Program-made: the position numbers and the translations under genes
Notes under the pieces: generated by a model
Seen by the model: only the letters and a program-made list of their open reading frames with translations
What the model was told of the DNA's origin: nothing
Databases searched by the model: none
Shown: piece by piece, positions 9,030-46,126 of the stretch
Numbering within the stretch: the first letter of the stretch is position 1
How the letters are laid out: every line of letters begins with the position of its first letter
Origin: Escherichia coli
Lineage (GTDB): Bacteria > Pseudomonadota > Gammaproteobacteria > Enterobacterales > Enterobacteriaceae
Length of the DNA: 64,000 nt
Assembly (NCBI RefSeq): GCF_003334335.1
Contig: NZ_QOWQ01000015.1
Strand: one strand, 5' to 3'

Positions 9030-9175
9030 GATTCGCCTGAACATGCCTTTTTTCGTAAGTAAGCAACATAAGCTGTCACGTTTTGTGATGGCTATTAGAA
9101 ATTCCTATGCAACAACTGAAAAAAAATTACAAAAAGTGCTTTCTGAACTGAACAAAAAAGAGTAAAGTTAGTCGC

Positions 9176-9284
9176 GTAGGGTACAGAGGTAAGATGTTCT
9201 ATCTTTCAGACCTTTTACTTCACGTAATCGGATTTGGCTGAATATTTTAGCCGCCCCAGTCAGTAATGACTGGGGCGTTTTTTA
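9176..9284 (+). ncRNA. spf: Spot 42 small regulatory RNA
   Basis: Sequence GTAGGGTACAGAGGTAAGATGTTCTATCTTTCAGACC...GCCGCCCCAGTCAGTAATGACTGGGGCGTTTTTTA matches Spot 42 from recall; ends in an intrinsic terminator. Confidence 0.92.
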
Positions 9285-10312: not shown

Positions 10313-10556
10313 ATAGAGCGAGGACGCTAACAGGAACAATGACTCAGGATGAGGGTCAGGAGCGCCAGGAGGCGAAGACAGAGGATTGTCAGGAAGACAA
10401 ACGTCCGGAGACGTAATTAAACGGAAATGGAATCAACACGGATTGTTCCGGCTAAAGGAAAAACAGGGTGTGTTGGCGGCCTGCAAGGATTGTAAGACCC
10501 GTTAAGGGTTATGAGTCAGGAAAAAAGGCGACAGAGTAATCTGTCGCCTTTTTTCT
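10313..10556 (+). ncRNA. csrC: CsrC, CsrA-sequestering small RNA
   Basis: About 245 nt with at least 13 GGA/AGGA motifs on the + strand and a 3' hairpin aggcgacagagtaatctgtcgcct plus T-run (10525-10554); matches CsrC by recall; ends are approximate. Confidence 0.85.
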
Positions 10557-10623
10557 TTGCTTGCTTTCTGTTAGATTCCGCCGCAAATCTATACTGAATA
10601 AAACGGCTAAAAGACGAACCATT

Positions 10624-12805: not shown

Positions 12806-12890
12806 TGTAGGCCGGATAAGGCGTTTACGCCGCATCAGGCATCTGAGCATGATGCCTGATGCGGCGCTGGTCGCGTCTTATCAGGCCTAC
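12806..12890. repeat. REP/BIME element pair
   Basis: Canonical REP motifs gtaggccggataaggcgtttacgccgcatcaggc and gcctgatgcggcgctggtcgcgtcttatcaggcctac in inverted orientation. Confidence 0.9.
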
Positions 12891-13145: not shown

Positions 13146-14555
13146 TCACTCCATCCCCAGCTCTTTTAACTTACGCGTCAGGGTGTTGCGGCCCCAGCCG
13201 AGTAGCCGCGCCGCTTCCTGTTTATGCCCCTGCGTATGTCGCAACGCGGTCGTCAGTAACGTCCGCTCCAGCTCTGGCTGCGCTTCGGAAAGCAGATTTT
13301 GATGACCGGAACGCAGCGCTCTGTCTGCCCACTGCGCAAGAAGCGTCGCCCAGCTGTCCGGTTGCATTTGCGAAGTACTCTCCGCAACCGTTGATTCAAA
13401 CAGTTCGCCGGGCAAATCCTGAATCAACACTTCCTGCCCGGCGGCCATCACCGTTAGCCAGCGGCAGGTGTTTTCCAGCTGGCGCACGTTGCCTGGCCAC
13501 GCCAGACGCGTCAGAGCAGCTTCGGTTTCCGGATGCAGTAACTTCGCTTCTACGCCCAGTTCGCGCGCGGCAACCTGTAAAAAATGGCGCGCCAGACGGG
13601 GAATATCTTCCCGACGTTCGCGCAGCGGCGGCAGATGAACGCGGATAACGTTCAGGCGGTGGAACAGATCCTCACGGAACTTACCTTCCTGCACTCGCTG
13701 TTCGAGATTCTGGTGAGTGGCAGCGATAATCCGCACATCCACTTTCACCGGCGCATAGCCGCCAACGCGGTAAAACTGACCGTCTGCCAGCACGCGCAGC
13801 AAACGCGTCTGCACATCCAGCGGCATATCACCAATTTCGTCGAGGAATAATGTACCGCCATCGGCCTGTTCAAAACGCCCCTGACGAATGGTATTCGCGC
13901 CAGTAAACGCGCCTTTCTCGTGGCCAAACAGTTCTGATTCGATCAAATCTTTTGGGATAGCTGCCATATTCAGCGCGATAAACGGCGCTTTGGCGCGCGG
14001 ACTGTGGCGATGCAGGGCATGAGCGACCAGTTCTTTACCGGTGCCGGATTCGCCGTTAATCAGCACGCTAATAGAAGAACGCGAAAGCCGACCGATAATA
14101 CGGAACACGTCCTGCATGGCTGGCGCTTCGCCGATGATATCGGTCGTTGGGCCGTTAAGCTGAACATTACGCGGCTGCTGCTGTTCCTGGTAATGACTGA
14201 TAGCGCGCTCAACCAGCGCCACTGCTTCGTCGATATCAAACGGTTTGGGCAGATAATCAAACGCCCCTTGTTGATAGGCGCTGACGGCAGCATCCAGATC
14301 GGAATGTGCGGTCATAATGATGACCGGAAGCATTGGATGGCGCTGTTTAATCTGCTTGAGCAGCGCCAGCCCGTCCATTCCCGGCATACGGATATCTGAA
14401 AGCAGCACATCCGGCGTTTTGCTCGCCAGCGCCTCCAGCACTTCTGCGCCGTTCTCAAACGTCGTACAGGTTAAACCTGCCCCAGCGAGCGCACGTTCAA
14501 GCACCCAACGGATGGAACTATCGTCATCGACTACCCAGACTATCCCTCGTTGCAT
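13146..14555 (-). CDS. glnG: Nitrogen regulation protein NR(I), NtrC, sigma-54-dependent response regulator
   Basis: Start placed at ATG 14555 ([12 protein letters not shown]..., 469 aa); receiver domain, AAA+ sigma-54 interaction motifs GESGTGKE and GAFTGA, C-terminal HTH. Confidence 0.96.
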
Positions 14556-14566
14556 AAACGTCACCT

Positions 14567-15616
14567 TTATTTCCTGATAGGCAGGTAAACCGAGAACTCG
14601 GTATGCCCTGGCCAACTGGTAAATTCAATTTTGCCTGAATGCTGATCAATCAAATTACGAGCGATGGATAAGCCAAGCCCGGTGCCACCTTCGCGGCCGC
14701 TGACCATCGGGTAAAACAGCGTATCCTGCAAATGAGGCGGAATGCCCGGCCCGTTATCTTCCACATCAATCCGCGCCGCCAGCCGGTAGCGCTCGCCGTG
14801 TAAGGTCAGTTGAAACGCGGTGCGGGTACGCAGAATGATTTCACCGCCTTCCGGCCCCAGCGCCTGTAGCGCATTGCGCACAATATTCAGCAAGACCTGT
14901 TCAATTTGATCCGGGTCGTGCGCCAGTTCCGGTAGGCTGGGATCGTAATCACGAATCAACCGCACGTTGTCCGGCAGTTCCATCGACACCAGCGTTACCA
15001 CGCGTTCAGCCACTTTGTGAATACTTTCGGTAACGCGCGTACCGGGCAGCTGCGGCCCCAACAGACGGTCGACCAGATTTCGCAGCCGGTCCGCCTGTTC
15101 GATAATCACTTTGGTATATTCGAGTAGTGATGGGTCAGGTAACGCTTTGCTGAGCAGCTGCGCCGCGCCACGTAAACCGCCAAGCGGATTTTTAATCTCA
15201 TGTGCCAGGCCGCGCACTAAATCACGGGCAGCAACCTGCTGGGCGTGCTGTAGCTGTTCCTGACTTAAGCGGCGCTGGTTATCCATCGGAGCCATCTCCA
15301 GCAGGATCATGCCGTCCGGCATACGCTGGGCCGTCACAGAAAGGATATGCGAGCGCCCGTCGATGACCAGCGTCACTTCGTTATCGGTAAAACCTTGCCC
15401 CGCCTCCAGACTTTCTTGCATCAGCTCGATATTTAATGAGAAGTAGCTCAACAGTTCCGGTAACGGTGTACCAAACAATTTGCGGGAGCTTTGGGCGAGC
15501 AGTTGTTGCGCGGCAGGGTTGGCGTAATGGATCGCCAGGTTGTCATCGATTAACAAAATACTGTTAATCAGCGAGTTGAGGATCTGCCCAGCATCGGGCT
15601 GCGTGCCTGTTGCCAT
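14567..15616 (-). CDS. glnL: Nitrogen regulation sensor histidine kinase NR(II), NtrB
   Basis: 349-aa ORF; H-box HEIKNPL, G-box GTGLGL; recognised by recall. Confidence 0.96.
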
Positions 15617-15769
15617 AAAGCAGTCTCCTGAACAGGTTGCACCATTTTAGTGCATTATAGCTTTTTACGGATAAAAAGCGCGAAGCATCAGAGAATTGAC
15701 GGAGAAAAAAGCCCATGCAGAGATGGGCTACAGATAGCTGACAAACTTCACGTTGGAGAGCGACTCACC

Positions 15770-15835
15770 TGCTCCGGCCTACCACATCATCACCGTGTAG
15801 GCCGGATAAGACGCATTTGCGTCGCATCCGGCGTG
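15770..15835. repeat. REP/BIME element(s) in glnL-glnA intergenic region
   Basis: REP motif gtaggccggataagacgcatttgcgtcgcatccggc. Confidence 0.85.
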
Positions 15836-15901
15836 ATGTGCTTGCCACCGATCCCAGGCCTGCCAGAGACAGGCGAAAAGTTTCCACGGCAACTAAAACA
15901 C

Positions 15902-17311
15902 TTAGACGCTGTAGTACAGCTCAAACTCTACCGGATGCGGAGTCATACGCACGCGGTCATCTTCTTCGCGACGCAGAGCGATGTACGCATCAATTGCTTC
16001 GTCAGTGAACACGCCACCGGCTTTCAGGAACTCGCGGTCCAGATCCAGTTCGTTCAGTGCTTCTTCCAGAGAGCCTGCAACCTGTGGGATCTCTTTCGCT
16101 TCTTCTGGCGGCAGGTCATACAGGTTTTTGTCCATGGCTTCGCCCGGATGGATCTTGTTCTTGATACCATCAAGACCGGCCATCAGCAGGGCAGCAAAGC
16201 ACAGGTACGGGTTAGCTGCCGGATCCGGGAAACGTACTTCGATACGACGTGCTTTCGGAGAAGAAACCACCGGAATACGGATAGACGCAGAACGGTTACG
16301 CGCAGAGTAAGCCAGCATTACCGGTGCTTCATAGCCCGGGACCAGACGCTTATAAGAGTTGGTGGTCGGGTTTGCCAGGGCGTTAATCGCTTTAGCGTGT
16401 TTGATTACGCCGCCAATGTAGTACAGCGCCTGCTCAGACAGACCTGCGTATTTGTCGCCTGCGAACAGGTTAACGCCGTTTTTAGACAGAGACATGTGGC
16501 AGTGCATACCGGAGCCGTTATCACCGAACATCGGTTTTGGCATAAAGGTCGCGGTTTTACCGAAGCGGTGCGCTACGTTGTGCACAACATATTTGTAGAT
16601 CTGAATTTCGTCAGCTTTTTTGGTCATGGTATTGAAGCGGGTAGCCACTTCGTTCTGACCAGCAGTCGCTACTTCGTGGTGATGGGCTTCAACCACCAGA
16701 CCCATCTGTTCCATCACCAGACACATTTCAGAACGAATATCCTGAGCCGAGTCTACCGGTGGAACCGGGAAGTAACCGCCTTTCACTGCCGGACGGTGAC
16801 CTTTGTTACCACCTTCGTATTGGGTGGAGGAGTTCCATGCGCCTTCGATATCGTCGATAGCAACGTGGGAACCGGAGATAGATGATCCGAAACGGATGTC
16901 ATCGAACAGGAAGAATTCAGGTTCTGGCCCGAACAGTACGGTGTCGGCAATGCCAGTGGAACGCAGGTAATCTTCGGCGCGCTTCGCAATGGAGCGCGGG
17001 TCACGGTCATAGCCTTGCAGGGTGCCAGGTTCAAGGATGTCGCAACGGATAATCAGGGTGGAGTCGGCGAAGAACGGGTCAATCACTGCGGTGGATGCGT
17101 CTGGCATCAGCACCATGTCGGACTCGTTAATGCCTTTCCAGCCGCCAATCGAGGAGCCGTCAAACATTTTGCCTTCTTCGAAGAATTCAGCATTCACCTG
17201 ATGAGCAGGGATAGTGACGTGCTGTTCTTTACCTTTAGTATCGGTGAAGCGCAAATCAACAAACTTCACTTCGTGCTCGTTCAGCATCGTCAGTACGTGT
17301 TCAGCGGACAT
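15902..17311 (-). CDS. glnA: Glutamine synthetase
   Basis: 469-aa ORF; recognised by recall ([24 protein letters not shown]...); adenylylation-site region NLYDLPPEE present. Confidence 0.98.
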
Positions 17312-17390
17312 ACTTTAACTCTCCTGGATTGGTCATGGTCGTCGTGGTAACGAAATCTGCAATTATTTTGGCCGTGTCGCCGTAAAAAAG

Positions 17391-17411
17391 ATAAAGCGAA
17401 ATCTGTGCCAA
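17391..17411 (-). promoter_or_regulatory. glnAp2 sigma-54 promoter (-24/-12 elements)
   Basis: Reverse complement reads TTGGCACAGATTTCGCTTTAT, fitting the TGGCAC-N5-TTGCW consensus and matching glnAp2 from recall. Confidence 0.85.
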
Positions 17412-17443
17412 CTTTTAAATTGCCCCTAAAAGGCGTTATCATG

Positions 17444-17532
17444 CGCACCATCGTGCAAAAGGGCTGCACCACGATGTGAATGTTGCACCAATATAGTGCT
17501 TCAATGGAAACATTAAGCACCATGTTGGTGCA
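17444..17532 (-). promoter_or_regulatory. NtrC (NR-I) enhancer binding sites upstream of glnAp2
   Basis: Palindromes GCACCATGTTGGTGCA (17517-17532), TGCACCAATATAGTGCT (17484-17500) and GCACCATCGTGC (17444-17455), centred about -140, -108 and lower relative to the sigma-54 promoter. Confidence 0.75.
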
Positions 17533-17683
17533 ATGACCTTTGGATAACCCTTTTTATGCTCCGTGAAAGCGATCACAAAGGGACTCTGCAATACTTGTTT
17601 GCGGAGGATGTTTGTGATCCTGTTTTGTAGTGCGATTAATCCGTGTACAATAACGCGCTATTTCTAATGCCTGAGGCAAAGTT

Positions 17684-19507
17684 GTGATCGAAAAATTGCG
17701 TAATATCGCCATCATCGCGCACGTAGACCATGGTAAAACCACCCTGGTAGACAAGCTGCTCCAACAATCCGGTACGTTCGACTCTCGTGCCGAAACCCAA
17801 GAGCGCGTGATGGACTCCAACGATTTGGAGAAAGAGCGTGGGATTACCATCCTCGCGAAAAACACCGCTATCAAATGGAATGATTACCGTATCAACATCG
17901 TTGATACCCCGGGGCACGCCGACTTCGGTGGTGAAGTTGAACGTGTAATGTCCATGGTAGACTCAGTGCTGCTGGTGGTTGACGCATTTGACGGCCCGAT
18001 GCCGCAAACGCGCTTCGTAACCAAAAAAGCGTTTGCTTACGGCCTGAAGCCGATTGTTGTTATCAACAAAGTTGACCGCCCTGGCGCGCGTCCTGATTGG
18101 GTTGTGGATCAGGTATTCGATCTGTTCGTTAACCTCGACGCGACCGACGAGCAGCTGGACTTCCCGATCGTTTACGCTTCTGCGCTGAACGGTATCGCGG
18201 GTCTGGACCACGAAGATATGGCGGAAGACATGACCCCGCTGTACCAGGCGATTGTTGACCACGTTCCTGCGCCGGACGTTGACCTTGACGGTCCGTTCCA
18301 GATGCAGATTTCTCAGCTCGATTACAACAGCTATGTTGGCGTTATCGGCATTGGCCGCATCAAGCGCGGTAAAGTGAAGCCGAACCAGCAGGTCACTATC
18401 ATCGATAGCGAAGGCAAAACCCGCAACGCGAAAGTCGGTAAAGTGCTGGGCCACCTCGGTCTGGAACGTATCGAAACCGATCTGGCGGAAGCTGGCGATA
18501 TCGTTGCGATCACGGGCCTTGGCGAACTGAACATTTCTGACACCGTTTGCGACACGCAAAACGTTGAAGCGCTGCCGGCACTCTCCGTTGATGAGCCGAC
18601 CGTTTCTATGTTCTTCTGCGTTAACACCTCGCCGTTCTGCGGTAAAGAAGGTAAGTTCGTAACGTCTCGTCAGATCCTGGATCGTCTGAACAAAGAACTG
18701 GTACACAACGTTGCGCTGCGCGTAGAAGAAACCGAAGACGCCGATGCGTTCCGCGTTTCTGGTCGTGGCGAACTGCACCTGTCTGTTCTGATCGAAAACA
18801 TGCGTCGTGAAGGTTTCGAACTGGCGGTATCCCGTCCGAAAGTTATCTTCCGTGAAATCGACGGTCGTAAACAAGAGCCGTATGAAAACGTGACTCTGGA
18901 CGTTGAAGAACAGCATCAGGGTTCTGTAATGCAGGCGCTGGGCGAACGTAAAGGCGACCTGAAAAACATGAATCCAGACGGTAAAGGCCGCGTACGTCTC
19001 GACTACGTGATCCCAAGCCGTGGTCTGATTGGCTTCCGTTCTGAGTTCATGACCATGACTTCCGGTACTGGTCTGCTGTACTCCACCTTCAGCCACTACG
19101 ACGACGTACGTCCGGGTGAAGTGGGTCAGCGTCAGAACGGCGTACTGATCTCTAACGGTCAGGGTAAAGCGGTCGCGTTCGCGCTGTTCGGTCTGCAGGA
19201 TCGCGGTAAGCTGTTCCTCGGTCACGGTGCAGAAGTTTACGAAGGTCAGATTATCGGTATTCATAGCCGCTCTAACGACCTGACTGTAAACTGCCTGACC
19301 GGTAAGAAACTGACCAACATGCGTGCTTCCGGTACTGACGAAGCCGTTGTTCTGGTTCCGCCTATCCGCATGACTCTGGAACAAGCTCTGGAGTTCATCG
19401 ATGATGACGAACTGGTAGAAGTGACTCCGACCTCTATCCGTATTCGTAAACGTCACCTGACGGAAAACGATCGTCGCCGCGCCAACCGCGCACCGAAAGA
19501 CGATTAA
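17684..19507 (+). CDS. typA: Ribosome-dependent translational GTPase TypA/BipA
   Basis: 607-aa ORF with GTG start at 17684 and GAGG Shine-Dalgarno at 17672-17675; G motifs [18 protein letters not shown]; recognised by recall. Confidence 0.95.
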
Positions 19508-19524
19508 TTTCGTTTTTTAGTCAT

Positions 19525-19557
19525 AAAAAACCTGCCAGCGATGGCAGGTTTTTTTTT
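19525..19557 (+). terminator. Rho-independent terminator after typA
   Basis: Hairpin cctgccagcgatggcagg flanked by A-run and followed by T9. Confidence 0.85.
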
Positions 19558-19723
19558 GCCTGTCGTGAGCGCACACCAATGCGAGTATCTCCCTTATAAG
19601 TCTGTGGTTACGTCAATAGAGAGCTTTGTCACAATTATCTGCAAAGTCATACGCCGTTAATTGCTTTCTTTTTTGGCGTAAGCGTAAGATGCTTCATCTG
19701 GTTTAAACCAAAAGGATTAAACA

Positions 19724-23639: not shown

Positions 23640-25043
23640 TTATAACGTTACGGAAGCCGTTTTTTCTTCTGTCGCCATCTCTTTATTTTTGCGTTGGTTG
23701 ATTTCCTCAATAATCAATGCAAACCGTTTTTCATTGAGTGTGTAAAAGAATCCCATCGTCAATGCAGCAATAATTGCCAGTGCACAAGGCCAGATAAAAA
23801 TGAGCTGACGCAAACCCTGTAATGTCGCATCGCTTTGCGCGATGTTGGGAACATAACCAATTTGCGTCAGCATAATGCCTGGCAAGAAGCCAGCAAGTGC
23901 GGCAGAAATTTTACGAAAGAAGGTATAACCGGTATAAACAGAACCTTCGGCACGAATACCGGTTTTCCATTCACCGTAATCTACGGTATCTGGTACCAGT
24001 GCCCAGTTCAGGCTGTTTACAAAGGCCGTGCCAAAAAAGGCGACACAAGAGAACATGACGAAAGTGAAAGAGTTACTTCCCCAGAAATAATTCAGTATAT
24101 CACCCACCGCCCACAGCACCATGCCAGCCAGATAAACCTGTTTTTTACCAAAACATTTTACAGTTAATGGCACCAGTAATACGCCGATGAGGATGCATCC
24201 CATACTGAAGAATCCCATCCACGACAATAAATTAATATCATTCAGCACATACTGGGTGTAATAGACCTGAATCGCCAGTTTGATATTAAATGCCGCCAGG
24301 GTACACAAGTTAGCAATGCATAAAACCAGCAATGGCGGATTCCGAAATATCGCGCAAAATGATTTGAGAATACTGGCTTTATGTCCGGTTGGCGTTGTGT
24401 CCACATAATGCTCTTTGACGCCTCTGTAGCACAGCATCATAAAAATAAAGCCGCCAATGGAGAACATAAGTGCCGCACAGGCATAACCGACGGTTGAGTC
24501 AGAAAAAAGCGACTGCAACGGAATAAACGCCACGGTACAAATCAATAGCCCTATGGTTGCACCACCCTGGCGGTAAGCCGCGAGCTGCGCGCGCTCATTC
24601 GGGTTTTTGGTAATTGCCGGGATCATCGCACCATACGAGCAGTTCATCAGACTGTATGAAAGTCCAAACATCATAAACAGCGCGGTGGCAATCGTCGTTT
24701 TAACCGGCAAACAAAAGGTGGTGGCGATAAACTGGAGCGTTGCAATTAACGCCGCCGGAACCGCTGCATATAAAATAAAGGGACGAAATTTGCCTTTAGG
24801 CCCAATATTTTTCCGCGAGTCGAGTAAAAATCCGGTGAGCATATCGGTAAACGCGGTAAAAAACTTCGCCACCAGAAAGATAATCCCGCCATAGTAAGCA
24901 GGCATCCCTAATTCATCGGTATAAAATTTGAGGAGATACAGAGTACCGATGCAGAGCATTAAATTCGAACCGACGTCGCCCATACCATAGGCGATTTTTT
25001 CCCGCAGATTCAGTTTTAATGTCAGTGGATTATGGTCAGACAT
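23640..25043 (-). CDS. yihO: GPH-family sulfoquinovose/glycoside:cation symporter YihO
   Basis: Start placed at ATG 25043 (MSDHNPL..., 467 aa) with AAGGAG Shine-Dalgarno; polytopic membrane protein; strong paralogy to adjacent yihP. Confidence 0.9.
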   Translation of the reverse strand: MSDHNPLTLKLNLREKIAYGMGDVGSNLMLCIGTLYLLKFYTDELGMPAYYGGIIFLVAKFFTAFTDMLTGFLLDSRKNIGPKGKFRPFILYAAVPAALIATLQFIATTFCLPVKTTIATALFMMFGLSYSLMNCSYGAMIPAITKNPNERAQLAAYRQGGATIGLLICTVAFIPLQSLFSDSTVGYACAALMFSIGGFIFMMLCYRGVKEHYVDTTPTGHKASILKSFCAIFRNPPLLVLCIANLCTLAAFNIKLAIQVYYTQYVLNDINLLSWMGFFSMGCILIGVLLVPLTVKCFGKKQVYLAGMVLWAVGDILNYFWGSNSFTFVMFSCVAFFGTAFVNSLNWALVPDTVDYGEWKTGIRAEGSVYTGYTFFRKISAALAGFLPGIMLTQIGYVPNIAQSDATLQGLRQLIFIWPCALAIIAALTMGFFYTLNEKRFALIIEEINQRKNKEMATEEKTASVTL

Positions 25044-42048: not shown

Positions 42049-45000
42049 TTACACCTTTTCCACATTCACAAGGAAGGACTTAAACTCCGGCGTCTGCGTG
42101 TTCGCATCACCAACGAATGGCGTTAAAGTATTGGCAATAAAGCCTTTTTTAGCTACGCCTTCATAGCCCCAGTGAATCGGAATACCGATGGTATCGATAT
42201 CTTTGCCGTTCGCTTTCAGCGTGCGAATACGTTTGGTCACCACCGCTTTGGCTTTGATATAGCCACGGTTGGAGGAGACTTTCACGGTATCGCCCTGGGC
42301 AATGCCAAGTTTATTCGCCAGCGACTCCCCGATTTCCACAAACTGCTCTGGCTGCAAAATCGCGTTCAACAGCGCGTGTTTGGTCCAGTAGTGGAAGTGC
42401 TCGGTCAGACGATAGGTGGTTCCGACATACGGGAACTTATCGGCTTTACCCAATGCTTCGGCGTCGTCTTTAAAGATACGTGCAGCCGGGTTCGAGATAA
42501 CGTTTGGATGCAGCGGGTTAGTTCCCAGCGGCGTTTCAAACGGCTCGTAGTGTTCCGGGAACGGACCTTCCGCCATCTTATCGAGGGCAAACAGACGCCC
42601 CATGCCTTCCTGCTGCATGATAAACGGCCCGACGCCGCTACCCGGAGGCGCTGCGCTGTAGTCCGGAATATCCCAGCCGGTCCACTTAGTGCCGTCCCAT
42701 TTCAGCAACTGACGCTTCGGATCCCACGGGTTACCCTGCGGATCTGCGGAGGCGCGGTTATACAGAATGCGGCGGTTAAGCGGCCATGCCCATGCCCAGC
42801 CCAGCGTGTTACCGAGGCCAGACGGATCGGCGTTATCACGGCGTGCCATCTGGTTGCCTTCCGGCGTCCAGCTACCGGCGAAAATCCAGCAGCCACAGGA
42901 GGTTGTACCGTCATCGCGCAATTGGGCGAACGAACTAAGTTGTTGGCCTTTCTTGACGATAACCGCACCGGTTGCCGGATCGGTAATATCGGCCAGCGCC
43001 TTACCGTTGCTCTCCATCGCCACTTCTTCTGAAGATGGCTCATGCGGAATGGCGTAGTTCCATGTCATGTTCAGCACCTGGTCCGGGTTCGCGCCACCCT
43101 GTTCGGCATACATCTTGCGCAAGCGCAGGAAGATACCGGAGAGGATCTCGCCGTCAGTCAGCGCAATCCCCGGGGCGTCCGCACCTTTCCAGTGCCACTG
43201 TAACCAGCGACCTGAGTTAACGATAGAACCGTTCTCTTCCGCGAAGCAGGTCGATGGCAGACGGAACACTTCGGTCTGGATCTTCGACGAGTCAACTTCG
43301 TTCAGCTCACCGTGGTTCTGCCAGAAGTTAGAGGTTTCAGTGTTCAGTGGGTCGATGGTGACGAGGAACTTCAGTTTCGACAGACAACCGATCACTTTGT
43401 TTTTGTTCGGGAATGAGGCAACAGGGTTAAAGCCCTGGCAGATATAGCCATTGACCTTGCCCTCTTTCATCATCTCGAAGTATTGCAGGACGTCGTAGCC
43501 TTTATCCCACTTCGGCAACCAGTCAAAGCCCCAGCTATTTTCCGCCGTCGCTTTATCACCAAAGAAGGCCTTCATCATAGAGACGAAGAATTTCGGGTAG
43601 TTGCCCCAGTAGTTTACCTGGCCTTCCAGCAGCGGTTTTGGCGTGTTGGCGGTAAGGTAGGTTTGCAGATCGGTCTGCTTCTCGCTTGGCAGCGTCATGT
43701 AACCTGGCAGGCTCTGCGACAGCAGCCCCAGGTCCGTCAGCCCCTGAATATTGGAGTGACCGCGCAGGGCGTTAACGCCGCCGCCTGCCATCCCCATATT
43801 GCCGAGCAGCAGCTGGATCATCGCCATCGTACGAATGTTTTGCGCACCAACGGAGTGTTGCGTCCAGCCGAGGGCATACAGGAACGAGGCAGTTTTATCG
43901 TGAGCACTGGTTTCTGCGATGTATTCGCAGACTTTCAGGAACGCGTCTTTTGGCGTACCACAGATGTTTTCAACCACATCTGGCGTGTAGCGGGAAACGT
44001 GCTGTTTCAGCAAGTTCCACACGCAGCGCGGATGTTGCAGCGTGGTATCGCGTTTGGCGAAGCCGTTTTCGTCCAGTTCATAAGTCCAGGAGGATTTATC
44101 GTACTTGCGTTTTTCCGCGTCGTAGCCGGTGAACAGGCCATCTTCAAAGCCGTAATCCTCACGCACGATCAGGCTGGCGTTGGTATAGGCTTCGGTGTAT
44201 TCGCGGTTGAATTTTTCATTGTTCAGCAGGTACAGCAATACGCCTGACAGGAAAGCAATGTCAGTACCGGAACGAATAGGGGCATAGTAGTCAGCTACCG
44301 CCGCCGTACGCGTAAAGCGAGGATCGATCACAATCAGCTTCGCGCCGTTGTGAATTTTGGCTTCCATCGCCCAGCGGAACCCGACCGGGTGAGCTTCAGC
44401 GGCGTTACCGCCCATCACCACGACGAGGTTGGCGTTCTTGATGTCGACCCAGTGGTTGGTCATCGCACCGCGACCAAATGTTGGAGCAAGACTTGCTACC
44501 GTTGGTCCGTGTCAGACACGCGCCTGGTTGTCGACCGCGAGCATACCCAGCGCGCGGGAGAATTTTTGCGTTAAATAGCCGGTTTCGTTACTCGACGCGG
44601 AAGCACACAGCATCCCGGTGGAGAGCCAGCGGTTAACAGTCACGCCTTCGGCGTTTTGCGCAATGTAGTTAGCATCGCGGTCTTCTTTCATCAGTTTGGC
44701 GATGCGATCAAACGCCTCTTCCCAACTGATTTGCTGCCATTTATCAGAACCTGGCGCACGGTATTCCGGAAACTTCAGACGGCTTTCGGAGTGGATGAAA
44801 TCCACCAGGCCAGCGCCTTTCGGACAAAGTGCACCGCGGTTGACCGGGTGATCCGGATCGCCTTCGATATGGAAGATAGATGCTTTGGCGTTTTTTGCTC
44901 CGTCACCGAGGCTGTACATCAACAGCCCACAGCCTACGGAACAATAGGTGCAGGTATTACGGGTTTCGCGGGTGCGCAGCAGTTTATACTGCCGGGTTTC

Positions 45001-45099: not shown

Positions 45100-45292
45100 G
45101 GATTGCTCCTTGTTTCGACATTGTCACGTCCCATTTACATTCGCTTGCTGCGTGTGCAGGGAGTGGGAGTTATTTTTCTTTGCGGAAGGGGCCGCAAAGG
45201 TCCAGAATTGGCTCAATTTCCCTCCATCCAGGAAGGGTTTGTAACAGAATACCATAATGTTGGTGTGTGTGTTCTTATCTGGTTAAGAGAAA

Positions 45293-46126
45293 GTGAAAAA
45301 AACACAGCGAAAAGAAATCGAAAATGTGACAAATATCACAGGTGTTCGTCAAATTGAGTTATGGCGGCGTGATGATTTACAACACCCACGGTTAGATGAG
45401 GTCGCGGAAGAAGTTCCCGTTGCGCTGGTCTACAACGGCATTTCGCATGTGGTGATGATGGCGTCGCCCAAAGACCTTGAGTACTTTGCGCTCGGTTTTT
45501 CGCTTTCCGAGGGGATTATCGAAAGTCCGCGCGATATCTTCGGCATGGATGTCGTTCCTTCCTGTAATGGTCTTGAAGTACAAATTGAGCTTTCCAGCCG
45601 CCGCTTTATGGGGTTGAAGGAGCGCCGCCGGGCGCTGGCGGGACGTACGGGCTGTGGCGTATGCGGCGTGGAGCAACTTAATGACATCGGAAAACCGGTG
45701 CAGCCGCTACCGTTCACCCAGACGTTTGATCTCAACAAACTGGATGATGCATTACGTCATCTCAACGATTTTCAGCCAGTGGGGCAACTGACTGGTTGTA
45801 CTCACGCCGCTGCCTGGATGTTGCCATCTGGCGAACTGGTCGGCGGGCATGAAGACGTGGGTCGCCATGTGGCGCTGGACAAACTGTTAGGCCGCCGGTC
45901 ACAAGAAGGGGAAAGCTGGCAGCAAGGTGCGGTACTGGTTTCCAGTCGTGCCAGTTATGAAATGGTGCAAAAGTCGGCGATGTGCGGCGTAGAGATTTTG
46001 TTTGCGGTGTCTGCCGCGACCACGCTTGCTGTAGAAGTGGCTGAGCGCTGTAATCTGACACTGGTAGGTTTTTGTAAACCGGGTCGGGCAACGGTTTATA
46101 CCCATCCGCAGCGTTTGAGCAATTAA
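45293..46126 (+). CDS. fdhD: Sulfurtransferase FdhD (formate dehydrogenase maturation)
   Basis: 277-aa ORF with GTG start at 45293; conserved GCGVCG motif; divergent from fdoG. Confidence 0.93.

Follow-up and report, generated by a model that had tools for sequence, protein, structure and literature searches.

The window analysed here is a stretch of 64,000 nucleotides from Escherichia coli, in which the genes around the locus of interest stand in the order yihL / typA / glnA-glnL-glnG / yshB / hemN, the same as in K-12. Window positions 14777-18777 (glnL-glnZ-glnA / typA) match positions 4055500-4059500 of K-12 MG1655 (NC_000913.3) with 0 mismatches over 4001 bp. This 100% identity, which includes the DNA directly upstream of glnA, bears out the wording 'intact glnA control region' of the first-pass annotation. 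An NC_000913.3 coordinate equals the window coordinate plus 4,040,723, and one in U00096.2, the older numbering that several papers use, equals the window coordinate plus 4,038,746. A 501-bp query around the control region occurs in one copy in each complete E. coli genome (5426/5426), always in the typA–glnA spacer. The ATG of glnA lies at 17311 on the minus strand, and the non-coding stretch upstream of it, 372 bp long, is bounded by a divergent plus-strand gene that starts at 17684. The cognate activator is present as well, since glnL (NtrB) and glnG (NtrC) are encoded immediately 3' of glnA. The elements of the locus are:

13146..14555, minus strand: glnG (NtrC), open reading frame downstream of glnA
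14567..15616, minus strand: glnL (NtrB), open reading frame downstream of glnA
15638..15654, minus strand: NtrC operator TGCACTAAAATGGTGCA (plus strand TGCACCATTTTAGTGCA), 1 mismatch, in the glnA-glnL spacer
15902..17311, minus strand: glnA coding sequence, glutamine synthetase, 469 aa, from the open reading frame and the RefSeq annotation of identical DNA
17384, minus strand: +1 of glnAp2, placed from the GC at -12 and the literature; leader 17384..17312, 73 nt
17411..17395, minus strand: glnAp2 sigma-54 core TTGGCACAGATTTCGCT, from the sequence and a published sigma-54 ChIP-seq motif
17421..17437, minus strand: low-affinity NtrC site V AACGCCTTTTAGGGGCA, centre -45, position from PMC5159524, 4/12 mismatches
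17442..17458, minus strand: low-affinity NtrC site IV, centre -66, position from PMC5159524
17465..17481, minus strand: low-affinity NtrC site III ATTCACATCGTGGTGCA, centre -89, position from PMC5159524
17484..17500, minus strand: high-affinity NtrC site II AGCACTATATTGGTGCA, centre 17492 = -108, a dyad match at the published position
17499, minus strand: approximate start of the sigma-70 promoter glnAp1, calculated as 17384 + 115 from its literature distance to glnAp2
17516..17532, minus strand: high-affinity NtrC site I TGCACCAACATGGTGCT, centre 17524 = -140, a dyad match at the published position
17562..17577, minus strand: CRP consensus site TGTGATCGCTTTCACG, about -70.5 relative to glnAp1, by sequence match

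The DNA is identical to the K-12 glnALG control region, with no detectable difference, and the window contains that locus. Both have the -24/-12 17-mer, the 73-nt leader, the -140/-108 sites and the weak -89/-66/-45 sites, with glnAp1 lying 115 bp upstream, with a CRP site, and with glnL and glnG downstream. The K-12 locus goes back to work from 1987 and to Atkinson et al. 2002, which we draw on as relayed in PMC3870243, PMC5159524, PMC4591121 and PMC8743547. Sequence identity, element positions, the uniqueness of the arrangement and its conservation come from the present analysis; what is said below on protein binding, on where transcription starts, on NtrC dependence, on looping and on the governor effect comes from published experiments on the identical sequence.

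The first-pass annotation had read a minus-strand -24/-12 sigma-54 promoter here, with three NtrC palindromes at enhancer-like distances upstream, and all four strings that it quoted occur where it placed them. In the promoter, the GG doublet (17409/17408, -25/-24) and the GC doublet (17397/17396, -13/-12) lie exactly 10 bp apart on the same strand as glnA and are oriented toward it. Within the 17-mer, TGGCACAGATTTCGCT at 17410..17395 deviates from TGGCAC-N5-TTGCW by a single mismatch (TCGC for TTGC). A sigma-54 ChIP-seq study assigned exactly TTGGCACAGATTTCGCT to glnA, at a distance of 73 and marked as previously confirmed (PMC4591121). The correct doublet spacing and this published motif identify the promoter that had been read from the sequence as glnAp2. 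In line with this, Table 1 of PMC2831329 counts glnAp2 among the known sigma-54 promoters and gives an 11.4-fold drop for it in its rpoN deletion column, an RpoN genomic SELEX peak is reported at glnA (PMC8743547), and the promoter is described as IHF-independent (PMC2709558). Placing +1 at 17384 puts the dyad centres at exactly -140 and -108 and gives a leader of 73 nt, all matching published values.

Two of the three palindromes are the strong NtrC sites. GCACCATGTTGGTGCA lies on the plus strand at 17517..17532, within site I, and TGCACCAATATAGTGCT on the plus strand at 17484..17500, which is site II; the two sites differ from TGCACC-N5-GGTGCA by 1 and 2 mismatches, respectively. They are 32 bp apart (~3 helical turns) and share one helical face, at about 100-150 bp upstream of the promoter. 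The enhancer-like distances inferred from the sequence are those of the published enhancers for phosphorylated NtrC (NtrC-P), with site I centred at -140 and site II at -108 (PMC1865078; PMC5159524). A genomic SELEX experiment with NtrC placed a peak of 97% intensity at 4,056,244 (U00096.2), that is window position 17498, between sites I and II (PMC8743547), and deletion of glnG abolishes glnAp2 transcription (PMC3870243).

The third palindrome did not hold up as an enhancer element. GCACCATCGTGC, on the plus strand at 17445..17456 (minus strand GCACGATGGTGC), is a GCAC-N4-GTGC inverted repeat with 4+4 arms and a 4-nt gap, whereas the NtrC consensus has 7 nt between GCAC and GTGC. This arm spacing, together with 6/12 mismatches to the NtrC consensus at the published centre of site IV, rules it out as an NtrC enhancer dyad; rather, the string marks the documented weak site IV in which it lies. 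Low-affinity sites III and V, which the first-pass annotation did not mention, are present too. Site III retains only a perfect right half-site (5/12 mismatches to the dyad), and this GGTGCA half-site is nearly invariant in Enterobacterales. Sites III and IV have been proposed to act as a 'governor' that limits transcription at high NtrC-P (PMC3870243), and one kinetic model has the weak sites additionally increasing output when NtrC is low (PMC5159524).

The control region also contains the promoter glnAp1 and a CRP site, both of which were missing from the first-pass annotation. The sigma-70 promoter glnAp1, 115 bp upstream of glnAp2, is stimulated by CRP, and NtrC-P blocks it (PMC1865078; PMC5159524; PMC3870243). 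Its calculated start falls inside site II, and site I covers about -17..-33 relative to it, an overlap that would account for the reported repression by NtrC (PMC1865078). The CRP site upstream of glnAp1 has been called classical and needed for glnAp1 activation (PMC1865078), and one preprint describes the CRP sites here as being without experimental mapping. Our sigma-70 consensus scan did not pick up glnAp1, a weak promoter; its output was a single chance-level plus-strand match at 17414-17442. The scan also gave three terminator-like hairpins, one of which is NtrC site I itself. Of all NtrC-like matches in the window, the best is a further dyad at 15638..15654. With the glnL start codon 22 nt downstream, it overlaps the TATAAT of the internal promoter glnLp, which NtrC represses (PMC3870243), and it is the known NtrC operator for negative autoregulation.

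These overlaps raise the question of whether the -140/-108 dyads might be operators that repress glnAp1 only and do not serve glnAp2 as an enhancer. Such a role would agree with their position over the glnAp1 start and its -17..-33 region, with the block that NtrC-P imposes on glnAp1 (PMC1865078), and with the analogous glnLp dyad, which is a pure operator. It conflicts, however, with the finding that the sites in this same sequence are needed for glnAp2 activation at low NtrC-P (PMC1865078). It also conflicts with the -140/-108 distance to the sigma-54 core, which is kept in enterics, as would be expected if spacing to glnAp2 matters. Looping studies, in the form in which PMC5159524 and PMC2709558 cite them, further report that glnAp2 output at limiting NtrC falls when the dyads are deleted or shifted by half a helical turn. 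We therefore regard a purely repressive role as very improbable. Repression and activation coexist at these sites, and the repression of glnAp1 belongs within the enhancer explanation.

We next consider how far the motif matches could have arisen by chance, with no regulatory role. In the 64-kb window, TGGCAC-N5-TTGCW with at most 1 mismatch was found 3 times against 3.46 expected from shuffles, and the NtrC dyad with at most 2 mismatches 4 times against 3.38. Each motif alone therefore occurs at chance frequency, and a sequence match by itself is no proof of function, which is the one point in favour of the chance reading. The arrangement behaves differently. Exactly one place in the window, directly upstream of glnA, combines a sigma-54 match with two or more same-strand NtrC-like dyads 60-200 bp farther upstream, and the combination appeared in 0/300 simulated 64-kb windows (first-order Markov). 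Scanning for the sigma-54 and NtrC motifs, which the first-pass annotation had suggested as a check, thus gave a split result: the single motifs were at chance, and the combined arrangement was unique in the window. The three best NtrC-like matches in the 64 kb, namely site I, site II and the dyad in the glnA-glnL spacer, all lie in glnALG control DNA. Chance would also have to account for a geometry that equals the published one exactly, for published sigma-54 ChIP-seq and NtrC SELEX peaks on these coordinates, and for positions that, among the matches listed, are fixed across Enterobacterales and clade-specific across Gamma- and Betaproteobacteria. Taken together, these results leave the chance reading a practically negligible probability.

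Elsewhere in the window, there is a sigma-54-like match at 24018-24033; we did not find it in the sigma-54 ChIP-seq paper's main text and therefore treat it as chance. Among the peaks of a genomic SELEX study is one for RpoN holoenzyme at 4,083,972 (U00096.2), which corresponds to window position ~45226 in the fdoG/fdhD spacer. Near it we observed only weak sigma-54-like matches with 3 mismatches, at 44937-44952 (plus strand) and 45811-45826 (minus strand), and the main text of the ChIP-seq paper yielded no mention of fdoG or of coordinates near 45226.

The conservation of the arrangement was followed in glnA loci chosen by a degenerate coding-sequence pattern alone (15 residues), independent of the promoter. 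This gave at least 120 loci from Gamma- and Betaproteobacteria, with 108 among the matches listed having 450 nt or more of upstream sequence. Of these 108 loci among the matches listed, 95 have a sigma-54-like core within 200 nt of the ATG (GG/GC fixed, at most 3 mismatches), and 91 of the 95 core-bearing loci among them carry at least one NtrC-like dyad at -200..-60, counted from transcription starts that were set by the motif. In the 108 loci among the matches listed we counted 223 dyads, compared with 13.6 +/- 3.0 in shuffled upstream regions. Dyads at -140/-108, within 2 bp, occur in more than 20 species of Enterobacterales, which include E. albertii and members of Citrobacter, Enterobacter, Klebsiella, Cedecea, Pluralibacter, Shimwellia, Siccibacter, Superficieibacter, Yersinia, Pectobacterium, Serratia, Edwardsiella, Erwinia and Pantoea. 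The layout recurs in other Gamma- and Betaproteobacteria (91 of the 95 core-bearing loci among the matches listed): the sigma-54-like core stands 27-150 nt ahead of the glnA ATG, with one to three NtrC-like dyads farther upstream. Dyad positions there depend on the clade: Vibrio has about -118/-97 (plus -147), many other (marine) Gammaproteobacteria have -128/-97 or -119/-98, and Betaproteobacteria have -128/-98 or about -190/-220. Across clades, neighbouring dyads are ~21 or 30-32 bp apart, that is 2 or 3 helical turns. This spacing suggests that helical phasing is conserved despite the clade-specific distances.

An alignment of 24 Enterobacterales allowed us to derive a footprint profile, expressed as mean identity to the window. 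The sigma-54 core scored highest among the elements profiled (0.93), followed by NtrC site II (0.86), NtrC site I (0.84) and the CRP site (0.82). Sites III-V reached 0.65-0.69, and the spacers between the CRP site and site I and between sites I and II fell to 0.48-0.50.

This profile bears on another explanation, which ascribes the conservation of 17495-17602 not to protein-binding sites for glnA control but to the typA leader or to an opposite-strand RNA gene, Rfam ES222, a barely characterised sRNA candidate. On the plus strand, RF02755 (ES222) scores 135 bits over 17495..17602, compared with a gathering score of 62, and at 17584-17606 this strand carries a hairpin with a weak T-run behind it. 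The predicted fold of ES222 is, however, unexceptional (z = -1.37; 16/200 shuffles fold equally well), and conservation is highest precisely at the dyad half-sites and the CRP TGTGA/TCACG, dropping to the spacer level between them, which is the pattern of a protein footprint and not of an RNA helix. An RNA on the other strand could, moreover, coexist with the enhancer. An RNA or leader origin of the conservation is thus highly improbable, and since conservation tracks the protein half-sites, ES222 does not compete with the enhancer explanation.

The ES222 match, on the typA-sense strand, takes in NtrC site I and the CRP site as well as part of site II, and its end falls at the hairpin just described. 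It agrees with the family consensus at nearly all positions, and as independent evidence it counts for little if, as we assume, the E. coli locus served to seed the family. The ES families reportedly stem from an E. coli RNA-seq screen by Raghavan, Groisman and Ochman in 2011. We found no description of ES222 in the literature searched; the match may be a fragment of the typA leader. Further Rfam matches over the dyads (MIR1511, mir-624 and rliD; E 0.04-0.5, far below gathering scores) were dismissed as artefacts of the inverted repeats.

In the glnA 5' UTR, just 5' of the Shine-Dalgarno sequence, lies a 25-nt block, TTACCACGACGACCATGACCAATCC, at 17326..17350 on the minus strand. Across Enterobacterales it is conserved as strongly as the sigma-54 core, and its distance to the ATG is fixed in Escherichia, Citrobacter, Enterobacter, Erwinia, Yersinia and Serratia. 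Folding of the glnAp2 leader (85 nt, z = +0.50) and of the glnAp1 leader (203 nt, z = -0.14) gave no RNA structure that would explain the block or hide the ribosome-binding site. A 2023 preprint describes unexplained translational control of glnA.

Downstream of glnA, its 3' UTR (15705..15898, minus strand) is annotated in K-12 as the sRNA GlnZ. This region contains a REP-like palindromic insert at ~15790-15835, its end is formed by a terminator hairpin with a T-run at ~15700-15725, and Rfam 15 reported no family for 15705..15898. Other RNA features that Rfam returned in the window are the following, the first four at gathering level:

9166..9284, plus strand: Spot 42
10313..10566, plus strand: CsrC
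19492..19560, plus strand: STnc370, at the typA 3' end
44459..44517, minus strand: SECIS_3 selenocysteine insertion element, presumably in fdoG
12810..12887 (plus strand), 53596..53666 (plus strand), 53688..53758 (plus strand) and 62603..62680 (minus strand): naRNA4 (CssrE), four matches

We take the naRNA4 (CssrE) matches to be intergenic repeats of the REP/BIME type.

With these alternatives weighed and none of our results speaking against it, we hold it to be virtually certain that the region is the native E. coli glnA (glnALG) control region, identical to that of K-12, and that it comprises a sigma-54 promoter and its NtrC enhancer. The published experiments on this sequence point at the following order of events. 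RNA polymerase with sigma-54 would occupy the -24/-12 element at 17411..17395 as a closed complex that is unable to open the DNA alone. Under nitrogen limitation NtrB would phosphorylate NtrC, and NtrC-P dimers on the -140/-108 dyads (17532..17516 and 17500..17484) would assemble into an ATPase hexamer. The hexamer is expected to reach the promoter-bound holoenzyme via a loop of ~100 bp, without IHF, and to drive formation of the open complex, so that transcription would begin at about 17384. Because sites I and II overlap the weak, CRP-activated sigma-70 promoter glnAp1 (~17499), the same binding events would shut glnAp1 while activating glnAp2. The weak sites at -89, -66 and -45 would tune the output, with III and IV capping it at high NtrC-P. 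The position of glnL and glnG downstream of glnA implies positive autoregulation of the circuit, in agreement with the operon logic by which both genes are co-transcribed from glnAp2 (PMC3870243).

The glnHp2, glnK and nac promoters share with glnAp2 a -24/-12 core of the TGGCAC-N5-TTGCA type and NtrC dyads upstream, and glnH also has the tandem design of a sigma-70 p1 and a sigma-54 p2 seen at glnA. By contrast, glnAp2 carries TCGCT in place of TTGCA at -12 and, unlike the other three, also bears the weak-site governor. It is presumably the most NtrC-sensitive promoter of this comparison set. glnHp2 uses IHF, whereas glnAp2 has no need of it.

A more speculative reading, drawn from co-location and conservation, concerns the two RNA observations. 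If ES222 is real, as a divergent transcript or typA (bipA) leader, occupancy of the shared DNA by NtrC and CRP might gate transcription of the ribosome-associated GTPase gene typA and would then link nitrogen status to typA; separately, 17350..17326 might be a cis element of the translational control of glnA. We consider this a long shot.

The control region itself is already known in full detail, and there is nothing new about it. An intact locus marks the window as ordinary E. coli chromosome and raises no new question. In practice it is useful as a positive control, in which a reader of raw sequence placed a validated sigma-54/NtrC module to the base pair. The locus is the founding example of enhancer-like, looping-dependent activation of bacterial transcription, and it still serves as a model and as a part in synthetic biology.
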